A stretch of 64,000 bases of DNA from Blasia pusilla (lineage: Eukaryota), in the NCBI GenBank assembly GCA_050084515.1, contig CM114271.1:13764001-13828000 (forward strand). Direction: 5' to 3'. Shown piece by piece: positions 4,691 through 64,000 of the stretch. Position 1 is the stretch's first letter. Every line of letters begins with the position of its first letter. The translations under genes were made by a program, and so were the position numbers. The notes under the pieces were generated by a model. It was not told where the DNA came from, searched no databases, and saw nothing but the letters and a program-made list of their open reading frames with translations.

Positions 4691-4890
4691 ATGGCAACTT
4701 CAGTGTTGGGATCCCCATTGTTTTCAGCCACGGAGCTGATGGCTTTAGGAGTTAACTTAGCTCCTGTATTTCAGCTAGCAGCCACGTTGTGTGAATGTGG
4801 GGGTGTTACTGCTACACGTGTTGAGGTGGATGAGGGTGTTGCGGTGGAGCGACCCTCTATGTCAGGTGTAGCATTAAGTACCAGTGCTAC

Positions 4891-6450: not shown

Positions 6451-6699
6451 CTATCTTTGTGGGTATTCCACCCCTTTTAATGAGCTCGATGGCTACCGGG
6501 ACGGTAGAGGCATCGGCTGGGGGCGAGGAGAGTAGTATTTTGCATCCTTGGAGTAAATGGGATGTTATGGTTGGGCATGTGGAGTTGGTTGCTCATGTTG
6601 GTGGAGGAGTTATTTGCTCAGATGATGGTGTAGCTAAGGGTGTACCATCTCGTGAGGGGGTTGCGTAGCAACCAATGGCATAGTCCTCTCCCTCTAGTG

Positions 6700-20308: not shown

Positions 20309-20470
20309 CACTAGAAGAAATGCATGTTTTTTAATGACTAAACTTTAAATAACTACCTGAAAGAATAAGTTATACTATGATTAAATGATTTAGTCATTGA
20401 TTTTAGGGTTGTGCTATTCATCTAGTCATTTTTATATGATCCAAGCAACTAGCAACATCCTCTAGTCCGA
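20309..20470 (+). mobile_element. Probable CACTA/EnSpm terminus
   Basis: CACTAGAAGAAA starts exactly where the RT is cut off, followed by TGACTAAA/TTTAGTCA subterminal repeats. The other end was not found. Confidence 0.5.
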
Positions 20471-24459: not shown

Positions 24460-24965
24460 CAAGCATAAGGGAGATTGCTACAAGGAGCAGCGGCGGCGGT
24501 AAAGAAGACCCACATTTATAGTTGACTTCATGACGGACATCGATTTATCCCCCTAGCCATTGAGATGTACGGGGCGATGGGGGAGAGGTTTGACTCGTTC
24601 CTTACGGATTACGCCCATCATCTCCAATCGAGAAATGGGTTGTCCTTAGCCAATGCGATACTTTATTGTAGGCAACGGGTCTCCATAGCTTTGCAGCGCG
24701 CCCAGGCAAATGGGCTTCTGCGGCGGGCTCAGGCGGTTGGAGACGCCAATGCTAGAGGCCCACTTAGTAGTAGTCATAGTTCTCTAGGTGTTACTGATAT
24801 TGTTTTTGCTGTTGGTGATTTTGGTCATTAGGGGGGAAGGCCCCCTTCTTTCTCCTCGAGGCTGGTTCCGGCCTCTTGAGGTCTATTTTTTGGGTCTCCA
24901 TGCCCCCTCTTTTGTACGGTTATGGGTTTCCCATCCTTTTTCTACATATATATATTTTATTTTCC
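24460..24965 (+). mobile_element. Second CRE-like non-LTR 3' fragment
   Basis: High similarity to 14260-14735. ORF 24565..24831. Confidence 0.65.
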
Positions 24966-37489: not shown

Positions 37490-40400
37490 AAATTTATTCC
37501 CCTAGTAAATAATATGTATCGGGAATCTTGATGAGATAAAGTAGATAGCATTGTGAAGAGTTTAAGGTTTGACACTTAGAAGCTAGGCACCCACATTTTG
37601 TATAATCAACACTCATATTATATGAGAGAATGTATCTCCCACTTTTCATATAGTACTTTATTCACTCAAGTAGATGAAAAGAAAATTATATAAGTAGGTT
37701 CTCTACTTCTTCTTTCAAATTCCAGTACAAAAAGAAAAAAGACTTTGTGAACCCATGAAGAAGCTTTCCTCCCCACCTCCACCACCAAGGTAGGACATGG
37801 GAGAGTTGAATGCCAAGCAAAACACAAGATTACAACCACAAAGGACTAGAAGGAACTCACAAAAAAATTCAAAGCCAAATGTGTGAGATTCATAGAGGGT
37901 AAAACCAAGCCTTGGGATATTTGGATCAAGCTTCCCAACAAGAAGAATGGACTAGTGGCCATTAGACAAAACTCCTCAATTAGACCACACATGGAAGGGA
38001 AATTGGTTATCTTGAGAGGCAAAAAAACCCCAACTGAATTTTGCAATGGCCCTCGAATATTATAGCTAAGAAATTGAGAGAGAAATCCAACAACATAAGA
38101 TGGATAAACCTAATACATTGCATTGATAATCATGGAAGGACATTATTGCACCTGTCAAAACCAAACATGCGCTAACATAGAACATTAGAACTCTAGTTGG
38201 TTGTTACATGCATATGCATCTCTACAGAATATTCATCACCAATCAAATGCACAAAACACTTGATAAACACATCTTACCACGAAGTCTAGATATAGAGGCA
38301 AGTAGCTACCAAAATATCTATAATAATATAGAAACATCCCTCACAAACACAAATCTTTGAGTCTCTTCAAACCAAATCCACTCTCATGGTAAGAGGACGA
38401 GGTTACTCACAAGGCAAAAAGCACCATTCCTATGTTGCCTCATACAAAGATGTTCTATAAAGAGAGAATGAGCTCTCTCTCTCTCTCTCTAAGCTAAGTC
38501 TATGGCGCCCATATTGTAGCCAAGCACTCTCCATCATATCACTTGTACTTCCCCTTTAAAACGTTGTATTCGGCTTCCAAATCAAAAGTCCATTATGAAT
38601 TCTTTATTAAACCCTCCAACTCTGATAGGCAAGAAATGACATTGCTCTTTTCTGAAGCACTCTCCCCATAAAAGGCTTTGGGAATAACACCATTATGTAC
38701 AGGGGGATCATAACTCTCCCCAGGCCCATCAAAATTCATATTACAACCTGCATTGAGATCATTCAAAACACCTCTTACGCCCTCATGCCCCTCCGACATT
38801 ATTCAATCAACTAGCATAAACCAATATAAACTCAATCTCTATCCCCATCGTCATATTAGTTGAGCTCTACTCCAAGTCCCAACATATTCCAATCAATATG
38901 TAGGTGGAAGAGATTCCCCCTAAATTGTATTCTCATGATATATGTGAACATCAATTGATTTTTGAGCAATTGAAATTTTGTCTCTTGATTCTTCCCCCAT
39001 TTCCACCACGATACATCTTTGTTAGTAATATCAAAGAATTTGCAATCCTATTAAATAAAATTGAGGTACCATCAATATAATTTTTCCACTCTTAAAAGCA
39101 CAAACTTGACTTAGATGTGTAAGGCAAGAAATACGTGAAATAGCATCTATCTTCATAAATTAAACACCAAGTCTACTTGGATATATCATATGATCCAAGA
39201 ACTCAATCTGGTCATAAAAGAACTTGCACTTAATTGGATGTAACTACAACCCATATAACTTCAATCGTCAAAATACCTTAACTAGCAAGATGCATGTTGC
39301 TATCCTTATAACCAAATGTGTCTCGATGCGAAACATCATAACTCTAGTAGGCTCACACTATCATGGATGCGCATCAAAGAGGTGTTTTGGAGGAGACATA
39401 AGATGTGAAATGCGAGTAAGGTTGAGCATTTTATGTGTTAATGGTCACAACTCGGGGAAATTTTGGACCAAACACGAACCAGGACTTGTGAGGAATTGAG
39501 TCTAAGAAAAGTAGATTGCCAAAGAGGATGAGAACCGGACTCGGAACTTGACTAGCGTTTGGGGTTTCACTATGTTTTAGGTCATAACGGCCGGACTTAA
39601 GATGCATTTGGGACAAGTAAGGTGGCATTAGAAATTTTATGCAAAGCTTATTCCAACGCATCAAAAATCTTGAAGAACGCATAAACAAAGATTGAGAAAA
39701 TGCACAAAATTTGTCGGAAGGACAGTTGGGTTGAGGGCCAAAATTAGTGGCCCGAGAGTACTTCCCAAAGGTAGGGGGAGGGTGGAGAACTCCAAAAGCA
39801 TATCTAAGGGAGGATCTCCAAGGGTTTTTGGGACCTAAACTCCACTTTGGGGAGCAGCAAGGCAAACCAAGGGCACAAAATGGGTTGGGAGGTTAGCGTT
39901 AGGGTGCAAACACCAAGCCAAGTCCAAGTGAGTGGATTTTGGAGATAACCCTTAGATTCCAACCCGTGACTCATTTTTTGGATCTCGATTAAAGAATCGT
40001 ACGAGGTCTATTGGATAGTTAGGACTGCTAGGCGTACGAGCGTCATTTCAGGTACTTTGACTATCCAAAAAATATGTCCTAAGTCCATAAAATCTTGCAT
40101 GTATTGGGAAGAGAATATGTAGGACCAGTTGAGCTTCATGAAAGGCCCAAGTTGAAAAGTTTGGGAGTTGGAAGGTTGATTGACTCGAACCAAGGCTAAT
40201 GAGAGTGTGTTTGGATGCATATTAGCAGAGTGAGTGTGACCTACTCAACGTACGCTTTCGCAAAATTTAAAATCAAACTTTAAGAGGATTAGGCGCATGA
40301 CAATGTCACTCATGCTCCTCAATGTTGATACTAAAGACTACAATGTCATAAATATAATACTTAGAAAAATCCTTATTTGTCAAGATCCTATCCTCAACTC

Positions 40401-40770
40401 TTTGAACAAATTTTGGGACGTTCTTTAATCAAAATGCTAAGAACCACAACATGTACAAACAATCCTTCTCGTAAGGATTGATGCCTCAAAATTTCCTCTG
40501 ATATTTTTGTCTCTCCTCCATTGTGATAGATAGTGCATGGTATGCGGCTTGAATTCAAATATCTAATGAACTGAAGACCTTTTCATGCCCATTGGCATCA
40601 AAGATCACCCCAAGCATGGATATAACATGTCAATTGCACATTGTCTATCATTTGATAAGTTGGTAGTCTCCACACAATTTCTTATTTGTCAAGTTGTCAT
40701 GCACATCCTTCTTTCAGGCATGGCAATGGTAGATGCATACTCTCCATGTGACATCTCCACTAGTTCTTGA
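37490..40770 (-). mobile_element. Highly decayed Gypsy-like pol remnant interrupted by a solo LTR
   Basis: 39160-39280 and 40303-40770 resemble the RT segments at 19970-20310 and 55900-56240. Boundaries approximate. Confidence 0.55.
39444..40302 (+). mobile_element. Solo LTR related to family D
   Basis: 40168-40302 is similar to the reverse complement of 16965-17100. Ends GGCGCATGACA. Confidence 0.65.
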
Positions 40771-43700
40771 GGAGTCACAAAATATATTTTGCATTTAGTA
40801 AGCATGATTTAAGCATATTGAAGGTTGCGCAAATTTGCATTGAGTAGTTCAGTGATATACCAATCTTCTAGCAATCCTACATGTACATTGAAATGGAGAA
40901 AGCCCAAATTTAGAGCAACAATCAAGATTAGGTTGAGATAGGAAGTGATGTACCTTGGCGTAAAAGTCCCACGGAAAATTTTGATTTTACATGGGAACCA
41001 AGGCGGGTAGCGAGGGAGCCAAGAGGCGGAGGTGAAGGCGGATGGAGGGGATGCATAGGGAGGCACGCTAGAGATACGGCCGAGTAATCCAACTACATTC
41101 GGAATACATGATCGTCCAAGTGTCATATTAGTCACTAGCCAATGACTAGACAACGAGATAAAGTCGAGGTAGGTAGTTAGCTGACTACACAATGGAAGGA
41201 AATAATATAATAGTGGGATCTCCAATGTGGTAGGAGACTGATGGGATATTGGATGGTGTGGGTTGATGTGACCATGACACATCTAGTAATTTTTTCAACG
41301 AGTGGAAGGTGTTTCACGACCCATGATTTCACAACCCTATGCTTTCGATCGTTATTTTCGATGAGATTCCTTGCCCATTTCCAGTTGTTGATAGAATTGT
41401 GACTTGCTAGCATTATGCTGACCAATGACAAGATGATTGATTTTCAAGAATGGTTTACAATAAAGTGTTAAACATGGCGATGCCAATTGATGGTTTCTAA
41501 TTTTTTATAAGAGGCTTGATTTATTAGTTGAGGAGAAGTTATACCATGTAAGATGTCACACCACATGGAGCGGTCATTGTTCACCAAGAAATAGAGTGAT
41601 GGCATGCGTGTTCAAGTTATCTATTTGAGTCTCATTCTTGCACTTGTTGCTTGTCATTGAGGATGTTGGATATTGGATAGAGATTGTGTTAGATGGGTGT
41701 AGAGATGGAGTCAAATGTAGATTCTTTTTGCATGTATTGTATTTGTGGATATAAGGCAGTTTCCCGAGGAGGAATTGTGTGTAAGACCCAGGTTGTTGTT
41801 AGCTTACGTGATCTAGTACCTATAGGAGACTCAAACTGAGCTCGAGTGTTTTAGTGTGCATGAGGTAGATGAGGTTAGCTAGTAAGGAGTGTAAGAGACT
41901 TACATTTTGGTGAGTTTGAGTGTGCGTGAGGCAGGGTTATTGTCACTAAATTAGCATTAGCGTAAGAAATCTAGTGAGGAGTATGGGAGACTCTTGGTGA
42001 GTTTGAGTGCTTGGGTGTATGAAGCAGGGTTGTCCTTACATATAAGGATCCTTGCACATGGTAAGGTAATGCCATTGGGAAAATCTGCATAAGGCGGCAT
42101 GGAGGTGGATGCAAGGTTCAATGTAGGGTAGTTACGAAAGAAGGAGCCCAAGATGGAACCAAGCGCATAGAGATTTATAAACGGGAGAATGGAACTAGTC
42201 AAGCAATGAAGGTTTTATAGTCTTGATGGTTGGAGGCTCTTAGTGTAGTGATCAAAAGCGTAAAAAGTACTCAAGTTGCATGGCAGTCGCTAGATAAGAA
42301 AGGATGACGGAGAATGGTACATAGACAAGGTCGGGTGACTCTGATTGAGAGATATGGTGAAGGCTAGATTGAGCTGTGTCACAAGAAGGTAGTTTCATAG
42401 GGTGGCATCACATGGTAATGACGAAGAGTGGGGATCAGATGTGCTCTAACAAAGCAAGGAGCAGCATAATATGAAGAGGATGTCATGCCAAAGGAGGGTT
42501 GTGTAACTTGTCTTAGCTAGGTTAGGCCACACGTGGTGAGGGTCGAGCAACAAAGCAAAGTCAAGGTATGTGGTCAAGTTGACTACATAATCAAAGCCAA
42601 TAACGTGGTATTGGGCCTTCAACATGGTAGGAGCTAGGTTGATGAGATTGTGGATGTTTTGGGTTAACATGATGTGACACATCCCAAGATGTTCCTCATC
42701 TTGGGATGTGTCTCAGAATGTAGATGTTCCACAACTCATGATTCACAACCCAACACTTTTGATCGTGATCTTCGATGAGATTCCTTGTCCACCACCAAGT
42801 TTTGATAGAGTTCTAGCTTCTTGGTACTATGGTGACTGATGACAAGATGAATGATCCGCACTCACAATATGCAATGGAGTGTTAGAGGTGGTGACACACA
42901 CCCTAATGCCAATGGGTAGTTCACATTTTTTGAGGAGAAGTTTGACTTGTCATGTTGCGGAGGGTGCCACACTACATGGAGCAATCATTGTTGATTGTGT
43001 TGTAAAATGATAGCATGTGTGTTCATATTACTCATTCAACTCCCATTCCTATGCTTGTCTCTTGTTATCTAGGATGATGGGTATCATGAATAACTTGAGC
43101 TAGAAGGATGCATTTATGGTATCAAGTACAAACTCCTTTTGGGTGTCGTATGTTTGTGGGTATAGAGCAGTTGAACAAGTAGGGGTCATGTGTACATGTA
43201 TGACCCAAGTTGTTGTTAGCTTATAGTTAGGTGAGATAGTATGGGAGGCTCAAGATAAGCACGAGTGTTTGACTGTGCATGAGATAGAGTTTTTCATTAT
43301 GGGATTACCATTAACGCAGGTAAGTTAGTGAGGAGTGTGGGAGACTCTTGTGAGTCATAGTGCATGAGCCTATGAGGTAGGGTTTTCATCATGATATTCT
43401 TCCATGGTTTGGAAGAACGGGGTAGTTTGAGGAGTGGTAGTGAAATTATGCAGAGTTTAGTGAGGTATTGAGGAGTTTTGAGTGAGAAACCACTATGACT
43501 ACCAAATATTGTTTGATTGTCATCACTAGACAACGAGTCTAGTGACAAGATCATGGACAAAGAGAGTGTTACGTGGGGAGAGATGGACAATGTGAGCCAT
43601 TGGGACATAGGTTGGTTCTTGCGAGCGGTAGGCACCATTGACCTCGATGACTTCATTCAAGACTTCATCGTGTACAAGGTGTGACTTCTAGGAGATATGA

Positions 43701-48742: not shown

Positions 48743-51700
48743 TGTAATGTGTCACGTTATTTAGGATACGTCAGTAAGATCTAGCGGAGCGCCTTTGGAG
48801 ATACTAGAGGACAACCTCAAAAGGTTGAGGATGACCTTCTAAGGCCACGAGTAACCTGAGAGAGCAGGTTTCCCCTTCATTTCGGCTAATTTGGAGCCAT
48901 ACATAGAAACTTACTATTTTGGATAAGTTTCTATTTAGAGCATAGTTGACTTTCTACTTTGGAAAGTGGCCCTTAACCCAGGTCAACAGGTCAAGAGCCA
49001 AGGAGATAACTTGCGGGCATAGGTTATCGAGGAGAGAGTTTGGGAGAGGGAAGGGGATATACCTCCAAGAGAGAGAGCTTGAGAGCTCATTCTCTCTTTG
49101 TTGAACCTCGTGGCATGAGGCGGCGGACCTTTGGTCTTCCTTGCCTTATATGTGTAATCCAAGCCTCTCATTAGGAGAGTGGGTTTGGTTTGACATGAGA
49201 GAGAGTGCACACCATGAAGAGCGTGGTGTGAGATATTGATGTGAGATTTCATTGATTTACAAAGAGAGAATTGAGTGGGTGAGAGAGTTTCAATGGGAGA
49301 GCTCACTGGTCACTCGCAATTGTTGCAGGTTGGGGACCGTGTTTCCCTTTCAACGGCTCATGAGAGTGCTCACCGGAGCAAGAGCTGCTTGATTTTGCTG
49401 TTTCTTTACCGATTTTTCATGAAGAAGAGTGGCGCGCGGAAGCGCTGCCCAAATTTTTGTAGAGATTGAGTATAGGGGCGGATTGCCCCATTTCGGTGCT
49501 CTTGGGAGCACCATACATCTCTTTTATTTTATAGGTTTGAAACTTCCGTTGGGAGAAATCAACGCGAAAGCGTTGCCAAATTTATTGTAGGATAGTAGAT
49601 TGAAGGGCTTTACAACAGTCCCTGTCAGTTTTTATTGGAAAATTGGATTGAAAAACAAATTTGACATTGTCGTAGATCATGAAGCTATGCACTTTGTGCA
49701 ATAGACGGTACACAATTTGGAGCTACGAGCAAAAAGTTATGACCAAGTTTGCAAATTATCAATTTTAGAATAAAAATTATCAAACCCTAAACCAGCCGCC
49801 ACCGTTTAGGGTTTGACGGCCGCTTGACGATAATCGAGTATCATACCGTGACACCGGAAGCCGCACTGCACTGTCTCGATCGCGGAGCCACTCCATCAGT
49901 GGGGAGCAGATTGTGTTTTGTTGACTGAGGAGGGTATGCCGCCGAGTGCCGCACCCCATTCGTGAGTGACGTATCATTTGTAGCCGTCGTAGGACTTGAA
50001 GCAGGTAGGGAACATAGATTTGGTCATTGCAGGTTGGCCATGTTAAGGCCACTCAAGTGTTGGATGAGGTAACGGGTTACCTGACTCTCGGTCCAGGTTG
50101 TTGTGGGAGATGATGCAAATCTCGCGACACTTGCAGGAGCATCACTTTTGTTCTCCAACATACATTCTGGAGAATGTGCCAATTTTGGGCGATTCGAGGT
50201 CTTGCATGGTGACGAGTGCACATCAGGTGCGCGTATGGATCGGCCCAACAGTGTTGTTGGATGCAATAAGTGTAGGTTCATGAGCACATTTTCTACGTCT
50301 TTGGTGGACCAACTTGGTGCTACATGAGGTTTTTTGGAAGGCGTATGCGAGAGTGGAGCGCCCATCCCATTTTTTGGTGGATTTTATTCACGATCTAGGT
50401 CGTCAATCACAGGTAGTGAGGCATGCTGATTGATCTTTGTTGACTGTGGTCAATAGGATTGGAATGCCACGAGCAGCCTTTTCCACATTTGTGAGTTTTC
50501 TCACTTCCTATGCATTCAAGGAGGTCGAACGTGGCTTGGTTTGGGATGACCAGATATAGCGGTTGGTAGAGCCCAATGCCGATGAGCAAGAGCGAGCAAT
50601 GGGATTCCCCATAGGAGTGACGGCAGTACCGTCACTATTAGAGGCATCACGACGTCATGTCTTTGGTCAAGCGATGGACCTGAATTTCTTGACATGGATT
50701 TTCAGCTTAGCAATAGCCGAGAGATGATAGCCACAACATCGAGCATGGTTTTGGGTACTTCACGTGGAGGAGATCGGATTTTGCAGTTGGGTGTAGGGGA
50801 TCAGTCCCGCTCTGTTGTTCGAGACAGGGTTGCACCATAACAACCACCAACACCGGCGCCGGAGAGTCCTACCGTAGTCACGATGGAGACTTGGGAGCCA
50901 GATATGGGCCCTAAGTTGATAGGAGGAGAGCGGCGCCGGATACATCAGTTACTTAGGAGTTATAGGAGCCATTTTGCATTTAGTATGCATGATTTGGATA
51001 CGGGTCCACGGATCCGCATTGAGTTGTCGAGCGACACGCCGATCTTCCGACAACTCTACAAGTACAGTCACATGGAGAGGGATCTAATTTAGAGTAAGAG
51101 CCATGATTTGGTTGGAGCAGGACGAGTGGAGATGTCGCATGGAGAGTATGCATCTACCACTGCCATGTCCGCCAAGAAGGATATGCATGGAAATTGGACA
51201 GATAGGCGGATGTGTGGAGATTGCCGACCTATCAATCAGTAGACGAAGTCCGATAGGTATGCCATACCCACCCCTAAGGAGATCTTTGATGCTATTGGGC
51301 ATGCAAAGGTCTTTAGTCCGCTAGATCTTCGAGTTGGATACCATCAGTTGCCTATCAAATTGGAAGTGAGGCAGAAGACGATATTTTGGGGCATCGATCC
51401 TTACGGGAAGGATTATTTGTATCACTCGCGGTTCTTACCATTTGGGTTAAAGAATGCCCCGGCTGAGTTTCAAAGGGTCATGGATAGAATCTTGGTAGGT
51501 CTATATTTTGCTAGGTGTTAGATTGATGACATCGTAGTCTTTAGCGCCACGGTTGAGGAGCATGAGCGACATCTAGAGGAGGTATTTTGACGATTGCGGT
51601 TACATGGGCTGAAGTTACATCTAGAAAAGTGCAAGTTCTTCTACGACCAGATTGAGTACCTAGGTCATACCATATATCCAAGTGGCCTTGGTGTGTAGTA

Positions 51701-52627
51701 GATGAAGGTGGAGGCTATTTCACGCACTCCACGCCCTACAGATGTGAGTCGAGTTCGTGCATCCATCGGATTGGAAAACTTTTATCGACGGTATGTCAAG
51801 GGTTTCAAATTGATTCCAAAGTCATTGACCTTGCTGACCAATGTGGATCAGAAGTGGTATTGGGGGGGATGATCAAGAGAGAGCACTTCAACTGCTCAAG
51901 GACAGATTGACATTTGCGCTCGTACTGAGGAGACCGATCAGGGGGCATCCTTTCCAGTTGCATACCGATTGGAGCATGTTGGGGCTTGGAGCCGTGCTCA
52001 CCCAGCATGACGATGATGGTAGAGAGTTTGTGGTGGCTTACGCTAGTCACTCAAACAACGCAACACAGGAAAAGTATAGGTCGTATGAGGATGAGTGCTT
52101 GGCTGTAGTGTGGGTTGTTGCACATTTTAGGTATTATCTATTTGGCAACCCTTTTACCATTATTACTAATCACCGGCCACTTAAATGGTTGATGGAGTCC
52201 GACAAGCTTACATGAAAGCTTGCAAGGTGGGCTCTATTGTTGCAGGAGTGTGATTTCTAAGTTGTGCATAGACCTAGGACGCTCAACTGGGATGCAAATG
52301 GTTTGAGCTGTAACTCATGACCAAGTTAGCGGGATGCGACCCGATCTCGTTGGCATGGAAAGAGTGGTGAGAAGTTGGTGCTAGGATGGCACGCGTCAGC
52401 CTTTTTGGGCTTGTTGGCTATGGAGAGCCAGATTTTTGAGACTTCAATGGCGAGGTCTGATTTAGAGTCCTTAGATCCAGAGGCTCATGAGAAGATGACA
52501 AGTGCGCGAGACATTCACGAAGATGGAGTAGTCTTGGAGTACCTGCATATTGGTCGCGTTGCGAGCACAGTGGGTGCTAGAGAGCAGGATCAGATCCTAC
52601 AGCAAGCTAGACGGTTCCAGTGGGAGG
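48743..52627 (+). mobile_element. Family B-like DNMT-Gypsy copy (5' repeat A, leader, DNMT, RT, RNaseH), cut by insertion of family A copy 2
   Basis: 48743-49100 is homologous to 16490-16831 (reverse). DLVIAGWPC at ~50016-50043, YILENVP, LWWTNL, EQERAMGF; RT and RNase H motifs at 51000-52300. Confidence 0.85.
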
Positions 52628-53378
52628 TGTCGTGCGAATCCACATTGTCATACAACATACATCGCTGACATACCATACTCACATACATACATAACATAGA
52701 CGAGAGCATCCACAAACACAAGTGTACCACGACTGAAATCCATGGAAGACCTTATGTCATAAACACATATAGAATCACATACAATCGAGCCAAATCCACT
52801 CCACGATGAGAGAATCAAGGTCTAAGCTTGCGGGAACTACCATAGCCAAGAGCTCTACTCACTACCAAGGCTAACTCCCAACGCAACATGCTCAACTCAA
52901 AGAACTAACAGTTCTTTGAGTGCACTCCACACTATATCCTCCAACCTAAGAGCGGGCCCTACTGGAAAAGTCACCCTCAACTGAGTAACCCCCAACCCTA
53001 TGTATGAAACCGCATCTCTACCTAGACACTACGACCCTACATAAGGTATGGCCTCTACTAGCACACTATACTCTACGACATAATCCATATGGTCATGACA
53101 ACTGTCGTGCGAATCCACATCATACAACATACATCGCTGACATACCATACTCACATACATACATAACATAGACGAGAGCATCCACAAACACAAGTGTACC
53201 ACAACTCGCCCCCCTAATTGGTGGTTAGGTCCCTCTAACTCCCATGTAGCCCTATAGATCTACTACATGCTATACACTTTCGTAGGTCCACGAATCAGAA
53301 GGCTGTGTGCTAGGTTGCCCAATCGCTAGTCGCACATCTGTAATCCATATCATGCAAAGATCAAGTCATCTACCTCTT

Positions 53379-54989
53379 CTACGTACATCGAGGACAAACC
53401 CACCTTCTAGTAGGAACAAAATCCATACGTGGAGTCAAACACATCATGTGCCAACCCCTAGAACATCGATCACACACCAACATACGGGCTACGTTACCAG
53501 CACACCCACACAACATACACCTCAAGCTAGCACGTATCATGGCTAAGCTTGGGTCAACAGTACCATCCACATTTGGAAGATGACATGACGCACAATTACG
53601 CACATGGTCCTTCCAAACAACTCCATCACGACCCTCCAACATGAGAACTCCAGAAGCTAACACCTCGCGCACTCGTAAAATAGTGAGGCCTGTTGTCACA
53701 TCCAACGTTGTCAGTGCAATCTGCTGCAAATAGACATAGTCCCCCACATGGAACCTACAAATCGATGGTCGATAACCTCCAACCCGAATGGTTGCATATC
53801 CCAACGTATCCCCGTGTTCAGCAATGGCAAGATTCTCAAAGGTTGTTGGCATAACTCTTCGAAAGAGCTCTGCCCATTGAGAACACACTCTCATCAACAT
53901 CTCTGGGTCGTCAAGGTTCACCACCTCACTAGACTCCTAACGAATTGCTGCTGGCAAGTCTGGATCTTGGCCGTATAACAGAAAATAAGGTGAGAAGGAA
54001 GCCAAGGATGCTTGGCAACTGAACCTATACCCCATGGCTAACCATGGCAACTCAATATCCTAGTCTCCAAGATGCCCCTTCTATAGGCCATACTTGCGCA
54101 ATGCCCTCTTCACCATCTGAACCACACGTTGAGCCAAACCATCCGCCTCTGGATGATCTCGAGACGTGGTCCGATGATCAATCAACGTCTTGTCACACAA
54201 GACCTGAAACTCACCCTGAAACTCTGTACCCTGGTCGGTCAGCACTTCACCTTGTGCACCAAAATGACTAAGCACTCTAGCAAGAAATGCATACGCCGTT
54301 CCCTCACTTGCCTTTCCAGGTAATGCCACCAACTCAATCCACTTGGAGAAGTTCTCCCCCATCACCAACACATATCGATAATGTCGTACAGTCAACGGTA
54401 ACGGTCCCGCAAAGTCCACACTCCAATGGTAACCCAACTCCATAATAGGCAAGGGGTGTAACTGTGGTGTAGGGGCATTGAATGATGCCCTCACCCGGTC
54501 ACAAACCATACAACGTGACACCAACTGCTACAACCTGAGTAAGCATGCCACGCCACCAATATTGACCAAGGAGTAAGCTGTACATACGTTTTACCCAAAA
54601 ATGTCCCAACTCCTCATGGGCATGTCGCACAATGCGCTCTCTCTGAGCCAAATGCGACACCTCTGAGCCAAATGCGACACTACTCATACTCTACTATCCT
54701 CCCACACACGGAGAATATGTGTTCCCTCCAATCGATACCTCTTAGCACATTGAAGAACACGATCTCGCTCCTTGGCACTCACTATGTCTGGCACCCTACT
54801 GGTCCGTAGGAACTCCAACACCAACGCATCATCATGAATATCACGCAAATCCGTACCACCATCTCCAACCTTCGAATCTGAAGGCTGGCCATCTACCCTC
54901 TGACTAGAGTAAGATGTCATGTGGTCCTCCATACTAGAGTCCACCCCTAACCAACATAAAAAGGCAAATGCATGCCAACCTGACACCAT
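53379..54989 (-). pseudogene. Integrase with C-terminal PHD finger
   Basis: SVDFAGPLP, TDQGTEF; CMLC-x9-CDRC-x4-H-x2-C-x14-CPRC. Confidence 0.9.
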
Positions 54990-54992
54990 CTC

Positions 54993-56500
54993 CTAATCAA
55001 CCTTGTCATGCCATCTAGTCCCAGTTGCATCCTCTTGGCTACTACATGGGTTCCTACTGAACCCATCAGCATCAAGGTTGGCAACTCCATGTCTATGTAC
55101 CACCTGGAAGTCATACTCCTGTAAGATAAGAGCCCACCGTGCAAGCTTCCCTGTAAGCTTGTCAGACTCCATCAACCACTTGAGCGGTTGATGATCACTA
55201 ACAAGGATAAACTGTGTGCCAAACAAGTAACACCTAAAGTGTGCCACAACCCACACTACTGCCAAGCACTCTCCCTCATATGAACTATAGCGCGACTCCG
55301 CTGCATTATTCAAACGACTTGCATAGGCCTCCACGAACTCCATGTGCTCATCATCATGTTGTGTCAACACCGCTCCAAGTCCCAACCTACTCCAATCAGT
55401 GTGTAACTGAAATGGGCGCCCTCTGATAGGTCTCCTCAAGATAGGCGTCATCACCAACTGGGCCTTGAGCTCCACAAAAGCTATCTCCTGATCATCTCCC
55501 CAGTGCCACTCCTGGTCTGATTTCAACAATTGGTTCAAAGGCTTTGCCATAGCACTAAATCCCTTCACATACCTCCGATAGTAGTTCGCCAATCCCATGA
55601 ATGCCCAAACTCTACTCACATCTACCGGACGAGGAATAAGTGCAGTAGCCTCCACCTTTGCTTGCTGAACTCCCAAACCATCTGGATAGATCACATTACC
55701 CAAGTACTCAACATCCTCATGGAAGACCTTACACTTTCCTGGATGTATACATAGACCATGAGCTTTCAACCGCTCAAACAATATCTGTAAATGTATCTGA
55801 TGCTCCTCCACCGTGTTTCTGAACACCAAGATATCATCAATGTAACATCGAACAAAATCCAACCTTGTTAGGATCCTGTCCATCACTCTCTAAAACTCGG
55901 AAGGTGCATTCTTCAACCCAAAGGGTAAGAATTTCCACTAGAACAAACAATCCTTGCCATGAGAGTTGACACCCCAAAATGTTGTCTTACCCTTGTCACT
56001 CTCTCGAATTGGCAACTGATGGTATCTTGCCCGAAGATCCAAAGTACTGAAAATCTTTGCCTCTCCCACCACATCAAAGATCTCCTCAGGTGTAGGCATG
56101 GCATACCTATCAGCCTTGGTGTGCCGATCGATAGGATGGTAATCTCCACACATCCGCCTATTCGTGTAGTTGCCATGCACATCCTTTTTAGCATGCATGA
56201 CAGTGGCTGATGCATACTCTCCATGCGACAACTCCACTAATCTAGCTTCCAAAATGTCCAACGTCCTTCTCTGAATTAGGTCCCTCTCCATAGTACTATA
56301 TCGGTAGGGACGATGAAAGATTGGCATATCACTAGCCAAATCAATCCGTATACCGGGTCCAACCAAAGCACCCAACTCCTTCATGCTAAAGGAAAAACAA
56401 CTCCTATAAGTACGTAGAAACTGTGTCAAGCGTCGTTTCTCACCTCCCGTAAGCTTGGGCCCAAGTAATGGCTCCCAAGTCTCCTCCACTGGCACACTAG
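54993..56500 (-). pseudogene. Reverse transcriptase and RNase H
   Basis: RMCGDYH, CYIDDILVF, LHTDWS, YEGECLAVVW. Confidence 0.92.
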
Positions 56501-56666
56501 AGGAAGAGGACGACGCCATTGGCTTCTTCGCAACCCCCTTACAAGATGGTATCACAAGGGGTGGAAGACCCAGAGACATAGTCTAAAGTCGACGCCGCTT
56601 GGCCATACCAAGACTCAAAATCCAGGTCAAACAATTCAGGTCCATGGCCTGACCCAACACATGACG

Positions 56667-57289
56667 TTTTTGGTTTGTTACTTCCCCAATGAGAGTGGAT
56701 TACCCTTCTTGGGAGAATAACTTCGCCAAAACCCCTTCTTGAGGAGAGTAGAGAATGTCTGTCAAGCATGGATAGGGGTGGAGCATGAGTGGTACCCGAC
56801 TTTCCTTTCCTTAATCCATACCATGTCAAGATACTCTTTGTAGATAGGCACTGGTTCACTCGCAATTTAGTTTATCATTTTGGGGAGGCGTTCATGAACC
56901 AGGTCATTCAATCTCCAACTTCGGTGATCCTTCCTATCGTCACATATGGAAGGACATGGGATTGTATTTTGTATGTCCTTATATAGCGATCCATGGACGT
57001 CAATAGGCCTGCTCAAGTAGGATTTAATACTAGTTGTGTTATCTTCCTCGTATACAAGCGTAAAATAGTTTATAGGGATTTTGTAGTTAGAAATTTTGGG
57101 GTCCAATGTTACAAAGAAGTGATCGCCTCGGCACTTCCATTTGTGATACCTGTCGTGAGAGAATGGAGAGTATACATAATAATTTTATATTGAAAAAGGA
57201 GATCTTCTCAGAGAATTCATCTTGCATCGACCGTGTCTGCCGCAGCTAGAAGGCCTGCCCTTACTCAAAGAAAGGCTCTCGACACGACA
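56667..57289 (+). mobile_element. Truncated family C LTR inserted into the DNMT C-terminus
   Basis: Reverse complement of ~1659-2281. Ends CGACACGACA at 57289. A short deletion of the host element lies at the other junction. Confidence 0.85.
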
Positions 57290-58100
57290 ACGCTCTCTCT
57301 TATCAGTGTTAGGCTCCACCAACTGTCGCACTTGAGAATCCCAAACAAGCGCGGGACCACCTTCCCTGTAGGCATGTGACGAGGGAAAACTCACAAATGT
57401 GGGTAGTGCCATCCTAGGCTGGCCCACACAGTTCACCACTGCCATGGGTGACCGATCAATAACCCTCACCACCTGAGAAAGTCGCCAAGTATCCAAGATA
57501 CTATCCACTGTAAGGCAAGGATCCCGATGCACTGCATCATATGCTCGACGTAGAACCTCCCTAGGGAACAAGTTTGTCCACCACAAGCGTGGACGATGTG
57601 CACGCGAGCCAACTCGCGCTGCATCCAACAACACCGCTAGTCCAATCCAAGACTGCACCTCATGAACACTCGCCATCATCCGCGTCCGAGTGTCATCCAA
57701 CAATGGAACATTCTCCAGAATGTAAGCTGGAGCATGTGCCTGATGAACCTGAAGATGTTGTAACATCTGTAATATCTCCCAAAACAATCGAGACCTAGGG
57801 TCGTGGAATCCCTCACCACGACCAGCACGTGTATGACCCAGACATGGCCATCCAGCAATCACAAAATCCACAGGACCAACCCTCTCAAGGTCCTGCGCCC
57901 CCAACAATGCAATGTGTGATAGCAAAGCACGCAAGTACCCACGAATAGCTGATGGCGGTAACAACTCATGATATTTCTGCATCAATTGACCAATATGTCG
58001 GGATGAGACTCTCTGGGCCGTCTCATCTCGCTCCACAGCCAAACTAGTGCTAATCCCACCAAAGAGATCTAACACACAAATGCCCTCCGGCGGATAGTGC
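57290..58100 (-). pseudogene. DNMT3-like C5 cytosine methyltransferase domain (most complete copy)
   Basis: ICVLDLFGGIST (motif I), DFVIAGWPC (IV), YILENVP (VI), AHRPRLWWTNL (VIII). Motif X remnant at ~56640-56667. Confidence 0.92.
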
Positions 58101-58449
58101 CAATACAATGGGTGTAGTATCCAAAGGGGATAGCCCAACTAGACCAGAAGTAGGAGTCCGGCCTGGGGCCTCCTCTTCCTGGTGAGGTATAACAGCCTCA
58201 TACCAAGCCTCTTGCACTAGGCGATCACCCTCCTGCCGTAGTGCACTGCCCGAACTCCAAAGTGGCACATCCAACGATGAGGATACCACTGCTGCAAAAC
58301 CAGGGACCTCCTCTACCTCCTCATGCACAGTAGAATCCATGGCAGAAAGGTTACCCTCCAAAAAGTCTCTTGGCCAAGTGACTACTCCACAAAAACCAGC
58401 CACAGATGCTAACACTGTTGGGGAAGACCCTCCTGGTCGAACCCCATAA

Positions 58450-58859
58450 ATAAATCTCATAGGAACCTGGCTCATACGTCCATCCATGGACTGCCAACCA
58501 GGTCTATAAGACGCTGTCTCAGTCCAATAGTCCATCTGAAAACCCATCGGGTACAATACTGCTCCTCCAACTAGTACATCATACGACTTGGCTGATGTGA
58601 CCACAACAGGTACTACCAACCGGGAGCTATCAGTCGCATGATCTGCTCTCAACTGTACAGAAAAATTATCTCGTGTCATGAATTGAGACCTATCATTGGC
58701 TCCTCCAAGTGATGTTTGAATCTGGAATGGGCAAGGCTCAAGCTCTGACCTCCGAATACCCAAACCAATACATGCCGCCTTTCCCAACATCAAACGTTGG
58801 GCACCAGAGTCTAACAAGACTCTATGTGGTCTATACACATATCTTGTAGGACTCACCAA
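58450..58859 (-). pseudogene. Aspartic protease
   Basis: RVLLDSGAQ ... YDVLVGG. Confidence 0.85.
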
Positions 58860-59512
58860 TCAGAATATCCCACTCCGGTTGTCCAACATACATACACTAG
58901 GTGTAAGCCTCTCACGATTAATGGTTGGCCGGGCTGGTAATGCATCCATCTTCGCCGCTGCTGCCTGCCAAGTAGCACTGGTACTCAATGCTACACTTGA
59001 CATAGAGGGTTGCTCCACCGCAACACTCTAATCTACCTCAGCACGTGTAGCAATAACACCCCCACATTCACACAATGTGGCTGCTAGCTGAAATACAAGA
59101 GCTAAGTCAACTCCTAAAGCCATCAGCTCCGTGGCCGAAAACAATGGGGATCCCAATACTGAAGTTGCCATCCACAATATTGCACTGGATCTACTACACG
59201 CGATGTAGATGCCTCAGTCCCCACTGTCGGCTTAATAGGCTGCGTAGGAACCATGGATGGAGTCCTAAGCACCTCAGAAAACAAGAATGACTGGGGAAGC
59301 CTAGCCTGCCTTCCAGCCTCACCCCTATGTGGGTCCAACTCCACAGTAGCACCACGTGGCTCTGACGCTCGAGTGGCTCCTCTTGTAACTGTAGCTGATG
59401 CCTCAACCTGTGCTGCACTCGCCATATAAGAGAGATCATCCCCTCCATAAGAGGTGGAAGCCCCTACTCCCGAACCTGATCTATGCTGGATACCAACCAT
59501 AGTAGCCAACTT

Positions 59513-60448
59513 TTACTCCAACTGCTCAATCCTGGCAGCCATAGCTGACTCTGTTGTAGTGGTAGGGGTAGCCACCGTAAGCTCTCCAACCACTGGTCCA
59601 CCTCTACCACCCCTACCACCTCTACCACCTCGGCCTCTCGGAGCTACTCCACCACGGCCGCGGCCTGATCTCAACTCTGGATGAAGATCAAAGCAACGCT
59701 CTCGAGGATGACCTGGTCTCCCGCAATGATCACACTGAGTTGGGGCCGACTGAGGCCCATCCTCCAAAGTCCGTCTCCCATCCTCTTGGGGACAAAACCT
59801 CCTAACATGATCAGCTCCACATGTCCAACATGACTGTCCTTGTTGCGGGGCAGCAAATGAAGGCAATGGTCTCTACGCAAGTGTCCCTCTAGGACCTGAT
59901 TGAGGTCGTGTGTACCCCCCACGACTCCCACTACTACTACCACCACCACTACTACGAGACTGTGGGGTGGATTGCTGAACACGAGAAGTAGTAGTTGTAT
60001 ACCTATTGAATGCGGATGTCACCACTCTCTCCGCCACCATGTTAAGCTTAATCTTCTAAGATAGAGCAAACACATGGGTCAATGTGGGTGAATCATCACT
60101 CATAAGAGTAGCATCACGTACCCTGCGGTGCAACTCTCTGTCCAAGATCCCATACCAAAACTGGACTCCGTGAGCCTCAGTCACACCCTGGGTAACTGAA
60201 ATCAAGCGTCGCATACGAGTGTATGCCTCACGAAGACTCTCACCAGTCTTTCGCTCAAATTCCTGAAGACTCCTCAACTTCTCTGTCTTCACTCCCTGAT
60301 AGTTCTTCTTCAACCTCTTGAAGAACTCTGCAATCGGGCTGAACAATGGTGGGGCACTAGTACCTCCACTAGTACCCCCACTGGTACCTCCATTGGTACC
60401 CCCACTCCGGCTCGTACTTGTACCACTCAACATCAGGCTGGCTGGCAT
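59513..60448 (-). pseudogene. gag with two CCHC zinc knuckles and an RGG tract
   Basis: CWTCGADHVRRFC, CDHCGRPGHPRERC, RGGRGGRGG; capsid-like FERKTGESLREAYTRM. Confidence 0.85.
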
Positions 60449-63129
60449 AGTAGGTCATGGATGCATTTACAGATTATAGTGACACAGTGGTGTGAAGTGT
60501 AGAGAGCACTCAGCTATCGATATGGCTTTGTGCGGTGTGCCTACAGCAGCGCTTGGACATCTTAATTAGGGATTTGTTAAGACATGGGGTAGGGAGCTTC
60601 GTGTGCTTTCACAAGAGATTGACTCCCCTAATTTCTCTAGCATTTTCAAATTCTTGGGAGGATGCCCACAAAAAATCATCAACGTCACGGCACGTGAACT
60701 TCCTCAAATTTCATCATCGATGTGTTAGGGCACACATGCTAGTACCAATCAAGTTGAGCGACTTACATGGATTCCTTTTCTGTCTTTATTTCTTTCTTCC
60801 TCACTACTACCTAATAGTCACATCTCTTGTCGATGAAGGTCTATTATCTCTTTATTTCTCCCTCATTCTCCCTTATTTATGAATGCTCAGCTTATATGTT
60901 GTCAAAGGCAGTAAGAGTAAGTGTGATTGGTCCGTGATTACTTGCTCATCATTGATTAATTCTTGCTTAATCCTGAGTGAATGAGTGAATGACTTATGAA
61001 TTCCGCATGGCAACCCGTGTGTCATTGGTCTGTGATTGGTTATTGGTTAGGTGTTTTCTGCCATCAACTTGTTACTCTCACATCAGATTCGGCGGTTGCA
61101 TGTTAGGAGCTACGATTATGCTTTGAAACACAAAGGTAGGATAGGAGAGTGGAATTCATCAGAATCCAAACCTTGGGAGATGAACACTTGGTGGAAAATA
61201 CAAAAAAATGAGAGGGGTTAATCAAACCTTCAATGCAGCACTCTTGTATTAGGATTCAGTGTCTCGCATGTATTTTGGTGTTGATGCATCAGTTGAGTTA
61301 CATCTCTTGCCATATTCCACATGTAGAAAATGTGGAGCACAGCACCACATGGTATGTGGTTATCCCTACACTTGTATTGCCATTTCAGTTTGTCACCTGC
61401 AATATGCGATCAAATAAATTTTCAAATCATGTTCTATTTTGGTTCCTTTAATCGAGTGAGTGGTCCTCAAGGTAGCATCGCGGCTTTGATCGAGCCCACA
61501 TTCCACGGCTACCCGTTAGTTGCCACTCGCTCATGTGCACCCAAGATCCCATTTTAATCGTCCGACACCTACCCCTACCTTTTTCTTTTCCTCCATCACG
61601 CAACACGTCCTCTCGGTATTGCTTTACTGTTTCAATGTATAGCTTATTGCTCGGCCAAGTGGTCTCCCTAAGGTAAGTGCTTCAAAATTTCTTCATAGTC
61701 TGGGCAATAGTGAATGGCTCACTTACTCAAAGTCACAACATTAGTAAATGCCTCACTTACGATGTCATCCTTGAAGAGTTAGCCACGGGACATAATGATG
61801 TAGCACACAAAGTCAGGACCTATGCAGTAGATTCCACACCTTCAAACCCTCATTCTCAAGTTGGGCTCCCAAATTCTCCGCACCCTTATTGAGGAAGAGA
61901 AGTATCTCTCTTAGTATCTCTGTCATTGAGATCCAACGTACATCACTAAGACATTGCCACCTCTTTCACAATTGATTCAAAGCTCCCAGAGCCTCACTAA
62001 TGCGTTCGTCTCAATAAATGTCAATTTTTTTTACTTCCATCAGGGGAGTGAGAGCGTGAGCAGCATCTCAACTCTGCAAGTCTATAAACATGCAAGAGGA
62101 AGGCCAAAAGCTATAGTGATTTTGTTGGTTATGTAGCCACCAACAAGAGATCAAACTTTTGTTGCACTTCACTATGGAATTTTTAGCTTCTGAAGGTTGG
62201 TTAAGTCCGCTCATTAAGTGATGGCTTTGGTTGCAGTTCTCTATCGCGCGCATGTGACAACAAAATTTGGGATTCTATTTGGTATAGTTGCATCTTTATG
62301 TAGCTTTAATTTTCTTCACACAACTCCAACTTTGTAGGATCTAGCCTTGTTCTTTTGGCTCATATCTCATCTTCATATATATCCAAAATTTCTTTGATAG
62401 TTGATGAAAATACTAGAAAACGATAGATCATAGGTGGAGATCTAAATAGCATACTTCACAAGAAGTATTGCAAGCACCTATTTGTTATTTGCCAAGTTGA
62501 ACTAGGTTGGTCATCCACTTCTATTGCATACTTGGATGCACTCTTCAACCTATAATCCATGATCATTGTCATTTGCCTAATTCAATTGATGCAATAGTTA
62601 AGTGCAAGAATCTCATTTCCAAACTATGGTACCTCTTTGTGAAACTATTCTAGTCTACTTGTTATTATACACCAATAACTATGTTTTCTTTTTTAGCATT
62701 GTGTGTAGGAGTGGATCCATATTGGCTAGACATAGGACTTTTGAATATCAACAACTTTGCATCAAGTACTTTTCTTGAACTACAACCCATGTGTTAATTC
62801 TTTTAAGTAGACACTATGTATGCTTGGACCCATATTTAGTTTTAAACCCCCACTACAAGATGAGAGTAGATGTGAATAACAATGAAATTCAACACCATAA
62901 ATTGTATACCTGTTGGAGCTTGTTAGTGAATTGTGAGAGACAAACATTGTTTGTTTTATCATCCTTAGTTGCTAACAATAACATGTAATATCTAAAGGTT
63001 GTCCGTACTACTAGTAAAGCTTTTTCATCACAAAGTCACAGACCTCTTGTGTATGTAGTAATGTCTAAGTTATTACATAAACACGCACGATCCCATGCTT
63101 ACTCATGGCATTCAAACAACCAGACGAGA

Positions 63130-63430
63130 AGTACCTAAATATCTCCAATTGCCCCCATAGTTGATGGTTAGGTCCCTCTAACTCTAGATAGCCATCTATC
63201 CCTACCTACCATCATATATATCTCTTGGACGCTAAGAGCAAAAAGATCAGGTGCTCATGTGGCCCCATCGTCTTCTTTTCATCCATGTCACAGACACAAG
63301 TCAAAATTTAGAACTACGTATTCTATGTACATGTGGAACACATCCATTGTCCCTGAGGAACCCTAGTGAGAGGTGGCGTCCAACATGCCATATGTCATCC
63401 TCTCGAACATCCGTCACAGACTAGCATTGT
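63130..63430 (-). mobile_element. Family B 3' fragment (PHD end, 3' UTR, PPT)
   Basis: Similar to 17560-17845. Confidence 0.7.
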
Positions 63431-64000
63431 TGTCGCGACCCTCATGACCAAACAAGTGCCAAGCGGAACATCGGAACATTAGCGGGCTCACGCTAAGATG
63501 GTTTGCGCGTTGGAGTTGTCTCAAAGAGGAGACAAGAGACGAGACGCGAGCGAGGAGTCGCGTTTTAGATGTTATGGTCGCGACTGAGAAACCTGGCCCA
63601 AACGCGGAATGAGACTTGAAGAAGTCGAGTCTAGGAAGTGGGTTGCCAACGGAAAGATCCGGATTTGGAACGCCACTAGCGTTTGAGAGTTTCCGATTGT
63701 ATTTATGACCATAACTTTTAGCGCCAAGATGCGTTTAGAGAAAATAAGGGTGCGTTGGAAAGCTTATAGAGAGCCGGTCCAAACGCACCAAAGATCGCTG
63801 CAATCGCATAAGCAGCGGCCGAGATACAACCCGAAAACGACTGTAAGTGGAGTCGGGTTGAGGGCCACAATGAAGGGTCCGACCCTCTTTTCCCAAAGGG
63901 GAGGGGTTATTGGAGAACCCCAGAAGTACTAGTAAGGGGGAAGGTCTCCGAGAGTGCTTGGAACCCAAACCCCACTTTGGGCGCCGCGGGGCGGCTCAAG
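63431..64000 (+). mobile_element. LTR related to family D, running off the window end
   Basis: Starts TGTCGCGACC; similar to the reverse complement of 17558-17150. Confidence 0.7.

Follow-up and report, generated by a model that had tools for sequence, protein, structure and literature searches.

Damaged copies of a bryophyte Ty3/Gypsy retrotransposon with a putative DNMT3-like methyltransferase in Blasia pusilla

In a 64,000-nucleotide stretch of Blasia pusilla DNA (assembly GCA_050084515.1, contig CM114271.1, positions 13,764,001 to 13,828,000; hereafter the window, with coordinates counted from its first letter) we find three copies, apparently dead and belonging to two subfamilies, of a retrotransposon that encodes a C5 DNA methyltransferase (DNMT) domain next to its reverse transcriptase (RT). 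We consider it probable that these copies belong to a bryophyte lineage of Ty3/Gypsy elements of the streptophyte 'Gypsy-DNMT3' kind, working by the mechanism proposed below. This kind of element is known; new here are its membership in land plants, the split terminal repeats, a putatively leaky stop codon behind the DNMT, a PHD finger at the end of the integrase and signs of ongoing transcription. The function of the enzyme, namely packaging into particles and methylation of complementary DNA (cDNA), is predicted from sequence.

Domain content, damage and ends of the three copies

A minus-strand open reading frame (ORF) at 57185-58138 (317 amino acids) matched PF00145 (C5 DNA methylase) with an E-value of 1.4e-9 and 38.3 bits against a cut-off of 22, a significant outcome of the search that the first-pass annotation of this DNA had proposed as a check. 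Adjacent minus-strand ORFs matched RVT_1, RT_RNaseH, rve and PHD, all above the Pfam cut-offs. The Retrotrans_gag match of the gag ORF remained below threshold (18.3 bits, cut-off 24.1), and the ORFs with the CCHC knuckles, the protease region and the N-terminal half of the RT were without Pfam match. This run of ORFs from approximately 60.45 to 52.63 kb constitutes copy 3. DNMT regions were mapped by tblastn with the intact relative P0001 as query and the other domains with the relatives P0141, P0161 and P0119. In this way the DNMT domain was located at three places, two on the plus strand and one on the minus strand, and in the Ty3/Gypsy copies of the window it sits between protease and RT. 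The mapped features are as follows.

Copy 1, 2414-2784, plus strand: 5' repeat A1 (371 bp), with the target duplication TCCA ahead of it at 2410-2413
Copy 1, 4688-5624, plus strand: protease region (tblastn)
Copy 1, 5616-6440, plus strand: DNMT domain without its N-terminus (tblastn with P0001)
Copy 1, 6666-6668, plus strand: conserved in-frame stop, reading TAG CAA CCA (6666-6674), with the RT going on in the same frame
Copy 1, 6717-9781, plus strand: RT, RNase H, integrase and PHD finger (tblastn), with several frameshifts and stops
Copy 1, 9960-10541, plus strand: 3' repeats B1 (9960-10065), GT, A2 (10068-10429), B2 (10431-10537) and TCCA (10538-10541)
Copy 2, 49993-50724, plus strand: DNMT domain from just ahead of motif IV as far as motif X, interrupted by 5 stops (tblastn with P0001)
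Copy 2, 50871-52632, plus strand: RT and RNase H (tblastn)
Copy 3, 59198-60454, minus strand: gag with two CCHC knuckles, 5'-truncated (tblastn with P0141, residues 182-557)
Copy 3, 58050-58859, minus strand: protease region and linker to the DNMT (tblastn with P0141, residues 566-940, and P0161, residues 763-918)
Copy 3, 57290-58111, minus strand: DNMT domain with motifs I, IV, VI and VIII (PF00145 and tblastn with P0001)
Copy 3, 56670-57289, minus strand: insertion of approximately 620 bp with TG..CA ends, solo-LTR-like, 93.6% identical to window positions 1658-2280 (boundaries read from the sequence)
Copy 3, 56553-56669, minus strand: motif X (VLGQAMDLN) and linker
Copy 3, 54708-56582, minus strand: RT and RNase H (RVT_1, 8.5e-13; RT_RNaseH, 1.2e-33; tblastn with P0119)
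Copy 3, 54075-54527, minus strand: integrase core (rve, 2.4e-12)
Copy 3, 53385-53519, minus strand: C-terminal PHD finger of the C4HC3 type (PF00628, E-value 1.4e-7, 31.8 bits with the cut-off at 24)
Copy 3, 52628-53202, minus strand: 3' repeats B1 (53202-53103), a 2-nucleotide junction, A2 (53100-52731) and B2 (52730-52628)

Copies 1 and 3 are 91.5-93.9% identical at the DNA level, and copy 2 shares 66-71% with either of them (66% with copy 1 in the DNMT); it appears to stem from a more distant subfamily. The DNMT of copy 1 is 79% identical to P0001 over 275 amino acids and contains one in-frame stop at 6114-6116. Its first 93 residues relative to P0001, including motif I, are absent, and motifs IV (GWPCQ), VI (ENV), VIII (HRPRLWWTNL), IX (ERERAMGF) and X (VLGQAMD) are kept. 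The gag of this copy is missing, as the sequence at 2955-4684 resembles neither copy 3 nor the complete element at locus L056, and in its PHD finger (9647-9781) the first cysteine is replaced by tyrosine. The DNMT of copy 3 (74% identity to P0001 at 288 aligned positions) begins with motif I (LDLFGGIS), which is followed by a 14-residue deletion, continues with motif IV (GWPCL) and intact motifs VI (ENV) and VIII (HRPRLWWTNL), and breaks off at 57290, where the approximately 620 bp insertion replaces 55 bp encoding motif IX. Motif X follows at 56669-56592, past the insertion and outside the span first annotated. Copy 3 also carries a frameshift near 58059-58111, reads AAG AAG where its stop site has mutated to AAG (56526-56528) and lacks repeat A1, the leader and the first 180 or so gag residues, with no similarity to L056 upstream of approximately 60354. 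The DNMT of copy 2 (60% identity to P0001) starts just ahead of motif IV and one of its five in-frame stops directly follows the PC of this motif; motifs VI, VIII, IX and X are recognisable. The first-pass annotation had described six C5-methyltransferase motifs in canonical order in three copies. Order and position hold, the order even across the family, and none of the three copies (0/3) has all six motifs together. Its statement that all copies are damaged is confirmed by the stops, the deletions and the insertion.

The RNase H end of copy 2 coincides with the B2 end of copy 3 (52628-52632). Either an insertion of copy 3 into copy 2 or a deletion that brought the two together would account for this; the remainder of copy 2 was not found past copy 3.

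The layout of the element is A1, leader, gag with two CCHC knuckles, protease, DNMT3-like domain, in-frame TAG or TAA, RT, RNase H, integrase, PHD finger, B1, two bases (NN), A2 and B2. The Ty3/Gypsy order of gag (CCHC), protease, DNMT, RT, RNase H and integrase is found in the window as well as in the distant relative P0161, which contains all of these domains in one uninterrupted ORF of 2324 amino acids. Furthermore, the element was detected in 79 metagenome loci, 35 of which are at least 9 kb long; 16 of these 35 show gag, protease, DNMT, RT, RNase H, integrase and PHD finger in order, and the others are incomplete or lie at contig ends.

Analysis of the element ends revealed split direct repeats. 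In copy 1, A1 (2414-2784) and A2 (10068-10429) are 92.4% identical, and A2 of copy 3 is 91.6% identical to A1 of copy 1. Repeat B, approximately 105 bp long, stands on both sides of the 3' A repeat in copies 1 and 3 (B1 and B2 of copy 3 are 97% identical over 103 bp). The B1-A2-B2 arrangement recurs in loci L013, L037 and L056, the latter two of which carry A1 at the 5' end too. In the three complete elements (copy 1, L037 and L056) the 5' end has A1 and lacks B (3/3), and all three are flanked by 4-bp target duplications (TCCA, AAGG and TCTC). Elements start with TGTCATGA and end with ACGACA and thus have TG..CA termini (the 5' TG of L037 reads TA); the B1/A2 junction consists of two variable bases (GT, GC or AT). 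Inspection by eye of the sequence after A1 gave no clear TGG-type primer-binding site. The annotation as a long terminal repeat (LTR) retrotransposon hence stands as far as the Ty3/Gypsy domain order is concerned, and fails for plain LTRs. A plain Gypsy element with two identical LTRs is ruled out by the A1 ... B1-NN-A2-B2 ends. Membership in DIRS was likewise rejected, as an rve integrase core with a zinc-binding domain takes the place of a tyrosine recombinase.

The integrase ends in a PHD finger that the first reading had overlooked. Chromovirus membership was rejected on this account, since the integrase C-terminus carries a PHD finger and no chromodomain. The nearest neighbours of the finger in the Protein Data Bank (PDB) are KMT2C/D, CHD4, DPF2/3, ATXR5, KDM5A/B, PHF21A and UHRF1. 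Several of these read unmethylated histone H3 tails, which we regard as a lead only.

Type of the methyltransferase, conserved stop, selection and transcription

We searched a profile of ten relatives against all solved (PDB) chains and obtained 56 matches at E-values up to 10. The highest score was obtained for DNMT3A (69 bits, E 3e-18), followed by catalytic-domain chains of DNMT3B and DNMT3C (59-60 bits, 1.3e-15 to 3.4e-15), tobacco DRM (41 bits, 8.5e-10) and Arabidopsis DRM2 (31 bits, approximately 1.3e-06). The best chains of DNMT2, HhaI and HaeIII reached about 25-27 bits (2.5e-05 to 7.6e-05), and no DNMT1, CMT or DNMT5 chain occurred among the 56 matches. A wider profile of the domain ranked the solved methyltransferases in the same way. 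This is in line with the resemblance to DNMT3 that had been noticed in motif VIII. The alignment to DNMT3A is linear, with DNMT3A residues 7-174 on motifs I-VIII and 237-272 on motifs IX-X, which agrees with the earlier argument against the permuted plant type. DRM chains align by their C-terminal part only (profile positions 32-159), as follows from the permuted motif order of DRM. A DRM-type enzyme was rejected, since the motifs run from I to X and not with VI-X before I-V. Together, these results support a DNMT3-like rather than a DRM-like identity of the predicted enzyme.

The relatives in the ten-member profile show almost no variation in the F-G of motif I, the PCQ of motif IV, the ENV of motif VI and the HR.RLWWTN block of motif VIII, and PF00145 was matched by all five domain-containing relatives tested with it (5/5, 35-50 bits). 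In a distant clade (P0138 and P0161) motif IV reads GWEC instead of GWPC, with the catalytic cysteine kept and the conserved proline changed to glutamate. Neither a PWWP or ADD domain, as in animals, nor a plant DNMT3 companion domain was matched by Pfam in the window ORFs, P0117, P0141 or P0161, in which protease and RT flank the DNMT. The domain resembles the mammalian DNMT3A, DNMT3B and DNMT3C, its best solved matches, in its linear motifs, in motif I of the LFDGI type and in motif VIII of the form AHR.R..W.NL. It differs from them by the lack of PWWP and ADD, by more sequence between motifs VIII and IX and by its position inside a retroelement polyprotein.

A further feature of the element is the stop codon behind the DNMT. 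Using the junction of locus L032, a nearly open copy with three ORFs of 957, 438 and 766 amino acids in one frame, as query and reading its stop as X, we found that 50 of 82 subjects align through the junction in one high-scoring segment pair (HSP) without a change of frame. The stop occurs at the same codon in 46 of these 50 copies (TAG in 34, TAA in 12), and the next codons are nearly always CAA CCN; in three of the four exceptions the alignment seems to be off by a few codons. The protein models P0117, P0118, P0141, P0005 and P0120 end at the same place, approximately 75-90 residues past motif X. UAG-CAR-YYA is described as the tobamovirus-type readthrough context of plant viruses (PMC3542737), and we infer from this context that the stop is leaky. 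The conserved stop makes the DNMT the tail of a Gag-protease-DNMT product in the bryophyte clade, and not a part of Pol proper. The placement of the DNMT inside pol by the first-pass annotation is therefore right in that the domain lies in frame between protease and RT, and needs correction as to the product, given the stop that follows the DNMT in these 46 of 50 copies.

To estimate selection we used query-anchored codon alignments and the Nei-Gojobori method. DNMT copies 1 and 3 differ by a dN of 0.076 and a dS of 0.076 (ratio 1.0). Between either of them and copy 2 the dN/dS is 0.19-0.22 for the DNMT and 0.16-0.17 for RT-RNase H, at a dS of approximately 1.6, which is near saturation. Over 76 DNMT copies, the medians by pair were as follows.

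dS below 0.1: median DNMT dN/dS 0.81 (46 pairs)
dS 0.1-0.3: median DNMT dN/dS 0.57 (2039 pairs)
dS 0.3-0.8: median DNMT dN/dS 0.48 (430 pairs)
dS 0.8-2: median DNMT dN/dS 0.20 (88 pairs)

Gag and RT-RNase H show the same fall of dN/dS with distance. Such a fall indicates dead copies that drift after long selective upkeep of the domain: as long as the lineages were active, purifying selection on the DNMT was about as strong as on RT-RNase H, and after the death of a copy the domain evolved neutrally. The comparison of subfamilies that had been proposed as a check accordingly shows a DNMT that is not neutral between them (0.19-0.22).

Next, reads of three raw RNA-seq runs, which bear the same species label as the best-matching DNA run, were placed on positions 52600-60500. 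The runs were chosen by this label, as none of the listed runs that contain the stretch is recorded as RNA. The runs yielded 1198, 1107 and 1231 reads, of which only 10, 7 and 13 were at least 99% alike; the reads therefore stem from sister copies. More than 90% of the reads had their first mate on the plus strand (82.8 versus 3.0 in bin 53392-53655), which in usual stranded libraries corresponds to minus-strand RNA and thus to the sense strand of the element. RNA depth in the approximately 620 bp insert was 0-8 without strand bias, compared to 27-52 in the adjacent DNMT bin. At 58037, 20, 12 and 9 reads bring 39-40 extra nucleotides at the site of the 14-residue deletion of copy 3, and at 56666-56668 six reads per run enter sequence whose reverse complement is like the linker between motifs IX and X of copy 1 (27/30 bases, by eye). 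Reads that fill the deletion and enter the linker indicate that the transcribed copies are more intact. In the species that best matches the window DNA, more intact sister copies are thus transcribed in sense.

Relatives, proposed mechanism and competing explanations

The search for proteins of similar length returned 115 matches to the window ORF, and all those with a named organism are bryophyte proteins, with the hosts Calypogeia fissa, Marchantia polymorpha, M. paleacea, Riccia sorocarpa and four Sphagnum species. A set of 25 longer proteins includes 15 gene models of Marchantia polymorpha, one protein from Calypogeia and two from Sphagnum; the Marchantia models P0117 and P0118 read without interruption from gag to the end of the DNMT. 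Liverwort and moss gag and DNMT sequences (P0117 from Marchantia, P0136 from Sphagnum fallax and the copy 3 gag) share approximately 60-70% protein identity. For transposons in hosts of such ancient divergence this value is high, and strong constraint or horizontal transfer between bryophytes could account for it.

The bryophyte DNMT profile matched 385 clusters (50% identity) at an E-value of 1e-30 or better, the best 150 all below 1e-56. Of 403 proteins fetched with the domain, 47 have the DNMT upstream of the RT and 165 between RNase H and integrase, while 191 were too short for a decision. Hosts named for the second form include Haematococcus lacustris, Monoraphidium neglectum and Chromochloris, and 119 of the 144 such proteins with an integrase have a C-terminal PHD finger; Closterium proteins show the first form. 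One green-algal-type Gypsy-DNMT-PHD polyprotein (P0373) comes from a record labelled as a Minisyncoccia bacterial metagenome-assembled genome, most likely through a binning error. An ESM Atlas look-up of a green-algal DNMT segment led only to clusters labelled 'C5 methylase, Streptophyta / Uroviricota', which did not enter the analysis. The green-algal elements thus resemble the bryophyte ones in a related DNMT (E 1e-56 or better) and in the C-terminal PHD finger, and differ in the position of the DNMT, which lies between RNase H and integrase and not between protease and RT. In a rapid maximum-likelihood tree built from 82 DNMT domains, for which no rooting was drawn and in which the prokaryote-like outgroup P0113 sits on a branch of 3.55, the two architectures require one change compared to a mean of 22.7 in shuffles (branch support 65). 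Both window copies in the tree fall into a clade with Marchantia, Calypogeia and Sphagnum (support 99).

The closest described system is KnitGypsy-Dnmt3 of Klebsormidium nitens, which has DIRS-type A-coding-B-A-B repeats with Gypsy domains according to the Fig. 4c legend of PMC5890265; the same article gives a Ka/Ks below 0.2 for K. nitens transposon DNMTs. As described there, it shares with the elements studied here the Gypsy domain set, a non-rearranged intronless DNMT3-related domain in the polyprotein, the A-coding-B-A-B repeats, purifying selection on the DNMT and a streptophyte host. It differs in that its host is a charophyte, whereas the hosts here are land plants (bryophytes). The link to charophyte elements drawn in the first-pass annotation was therefore apt, in domain set and in repeat layout (PMC5890265). 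As the protein searches returned no K. nitens protein, the comparison uses the published description, and the A...B-A-B layout is the strongest link between the two. SymbioDIRS-Dnmt3 of Symbiodinium also has a DNMT3-type domain in Pol and A-coding-B-A-B repeats, and is reported to methylate CG de novo in yeast (PMC5890265); in place of a DDE integrase it has a tyrosine recombinase, its retroelement class is an unrelated one, and its host is a dinoflagellate. Gypsy-7a_cRei of Chlamydomonas, for which a PHD finger is described (PMC9940879), and the chromoviruses likewise have a chromatin-reader module at the integrase region. Both are without a DNMT, and chromoviruses use a chromodomain. DNMT3s embedded in retrotransposons have been mentioned for streptophytes and dinoflagellates (PMC12344493), and a preprint lists 'streptophytes (Gypsy-DNMT3)' among the known cases (10.64898/2026.05.21.726589). 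A full-text literature search, which did not extend to paper supplements, returned no published account of the bryophyte elements or of the green-algal form.

Under the mechanism that we propose, all ribosomes would yield Gag-protease-DNMT, and only readthrough of the leaky stop would add RT, RNase H, integrase and PHD finger. With the DNMT on the Gag side of the stop, the methyltransferase would be made in step with Gag, enter the particle together with it and be released by the protease. Inside the particle it could methylate the new double-stranded cDNA, and the PHD finger of the integrase may steer the complex to chromatin of a given H3-tail state, so that the new copy would arrive already methylated. 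It may be speculated that the element would benefit by mimicry of methylated host DNA, by protection from deamination or by damping its own harm.

Several observations weigh against this interpretation. The DNMT3-likeness is a score ranking against solved structures and not a phylogeny, and the tree was built without plant DNMT3, DRM, MET1 and CMT references; the kinship with KnitGypsy-Dnmt3 is likewise judged from a description and not from sequence. Damage affects all copies in the window and the majority of the relatives, no more than 6 of 76 DNMT regions are free of stops in a single HSP, and an ORF of at least 400 amino acids was present in one of the 19 loci listed. Most of the 46 copies with the stop read CAA CCC and 4 of them match the full CAR YYA context, and the distant single-ORF relatives P0161 and P0180 are without a stop at that site. 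No B1/B2 repeat was found within 1.5 kb of the PHD finger in 10 of the 15 loci with 3' sequence. Finally, transcription of the window's own copies was not borne out, given the 7-13 reads per run that are at least 99% alike.

Of the competing explanations, an independent gain of the DNMT by the bryophyte elements and by those of Klebsormidium and green algae, and hence convergence, survives best, although we judge it rather unlikely. Recurrent capture is documented (PMC5890265; preprint 10.64898/2026.05.21.726589), the DNMT occupies two positions (protease-DNMT-RT in 47 proteins, RNase H-DNMT-integrase in 165), and the K. nitens sequence did not enter the comparison. However, both architectures match the bryophyte profile over its full length with E-values of 1e-56 to 1e-112, compared to 3e-18 for DNMT3A, the tree needs only the single architecture change, and the A...B-A-B layout is common to the K. 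nitens element as published. A single old Viridiplantae Gypsy lineage with a DNMT3-like enzyme and a PHD finger might predate the split of green algae and streptophytes, with the enzyme shifted in streptophytes to the side of Gag and protease, ahead of a leaky stop, and the lineage surviving, transcribed, in land plants; we put this forward tentatively, as a doubtful though possible history.

It is also improbable, to a slightly greater degree than convergence, that the DNMT becomes active once the element has integrated, with host chromatin or the neighbourhood of the element as its target, seeding methylation at and around the insertion site or in trans at other loci. Such a role would fit the chromatin-reading PHD finger that the element also carries, a product at Gag level could reach the nucleus in excess, and the discussion in PMC5890265 raises effects on insertion-site chromatin and the host methylome. 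However, the PHD finger is part of the integrase product past the stop and not of the DNMT product, and would therefore not guide a free DNMT. Moreover, the observed/expected CpG ratio of the copies (0.54-0.62, with values up to 0.71) does not differ from that of the whole window (0.57); this equal depletion argues against a local footprint and tells nothing particular about the element.

That the domain no longer methylates DNA and serves as a nucleic-acid-binding or RNA-methylating module appears very unlikely. The LINE-borne SymbioLINE-Dnmt of Symbiodinium is reported to have given no DNA methylation in yeast, with an RNA substrate suggested (PMC5890265), and one distant clade (P0138) has the GWEC variant of motif IV. 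Against this stand the near-invariance of PCQ, ENV and motif I in the bryophyte clade and the best solved relatives, which are the DNA enzymes DNMT3A, DNMT3B and DNMT3C (69 bits, compared to 27 for DNMT2). An artefact, either a host DNMT fragment caught in a transposon by chance or a chimeric assembly, has nothing but the broken state of all copies in its favour and is refuted by the recurrence of the same DNMT position in three window copies, 79 metagenome loci and 15 Marchantia gene models, in frame with protease and RT.

If the single-lineage history sketched above is correct, a transposon-made DNMT3 produced at Gag levels would contribute to de novo methylation in bryophytes, Marchantia polymorpha among them, as a source not counted so far. 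Retrotransposons that encode their own silencing enzyme were known from one charophyte alga and from dinoflagellates, as described in PMC5890265, and the streptophyte Gypsy-DNMT3 kind now extends into land plants. The near-intact Marchantia polymorpha models and the host transcripts bring the role of the element within reach of bryophyte genetics and methylome data. Handles on the mechanism are the DNMT on the Gag side of the putatively leaky stop, the PHD finger of the integrase and the split repeats with integrase-type ends. For annotators, bryophyte gene models named 'DNA (cytosine-5)-methyltransferase' can be transposon fragments.

Other elements in the window

On the sense strand of the element there is a strong excess of G over C, with a GC skew of approximately +0.25 over copy 1 and, read on the plus strand, of -0.1 to -0.3 across copy 3. 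Window positions 1-2280 contain a further minus-strand retroelement. It has a gag-like ORF at 1-1532 with a CCHC knuckle, and upstream of this ORF lies a TG..CA repeat of approximately 620 bp (1658-2280), which is the same repeat as the insert in the DNMT of copy 3. Between 10.6 and 49.9 kb only three ORFs of at least 140 amino acids occur, and these are uninformative. Direct repeats at 14270-14711 and 24463-24936 (83-92% identical) enclose a minus-strand RT-RNase H-integrase-PHD stretch at 17805-20280. The stretch is 50-63% identical to Marchantia proteins and has no protease or DNMT match upstream; the element at 14270-24936 may be a PHD-bearing relative without DNMT. The region from 20 to 24 kb is AT-rich (GC 0.30-0.32), perhaps owing to a later insertion. 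Decayed Gypsy RT/RNase H fragments lie at 38800-40950 (minus strand), and a lone PHD-finger fragment at 63326-63436 (minus strand) with an adjoining repeat spans 63075-63436. The window as a whole consists of nested transposon debris.

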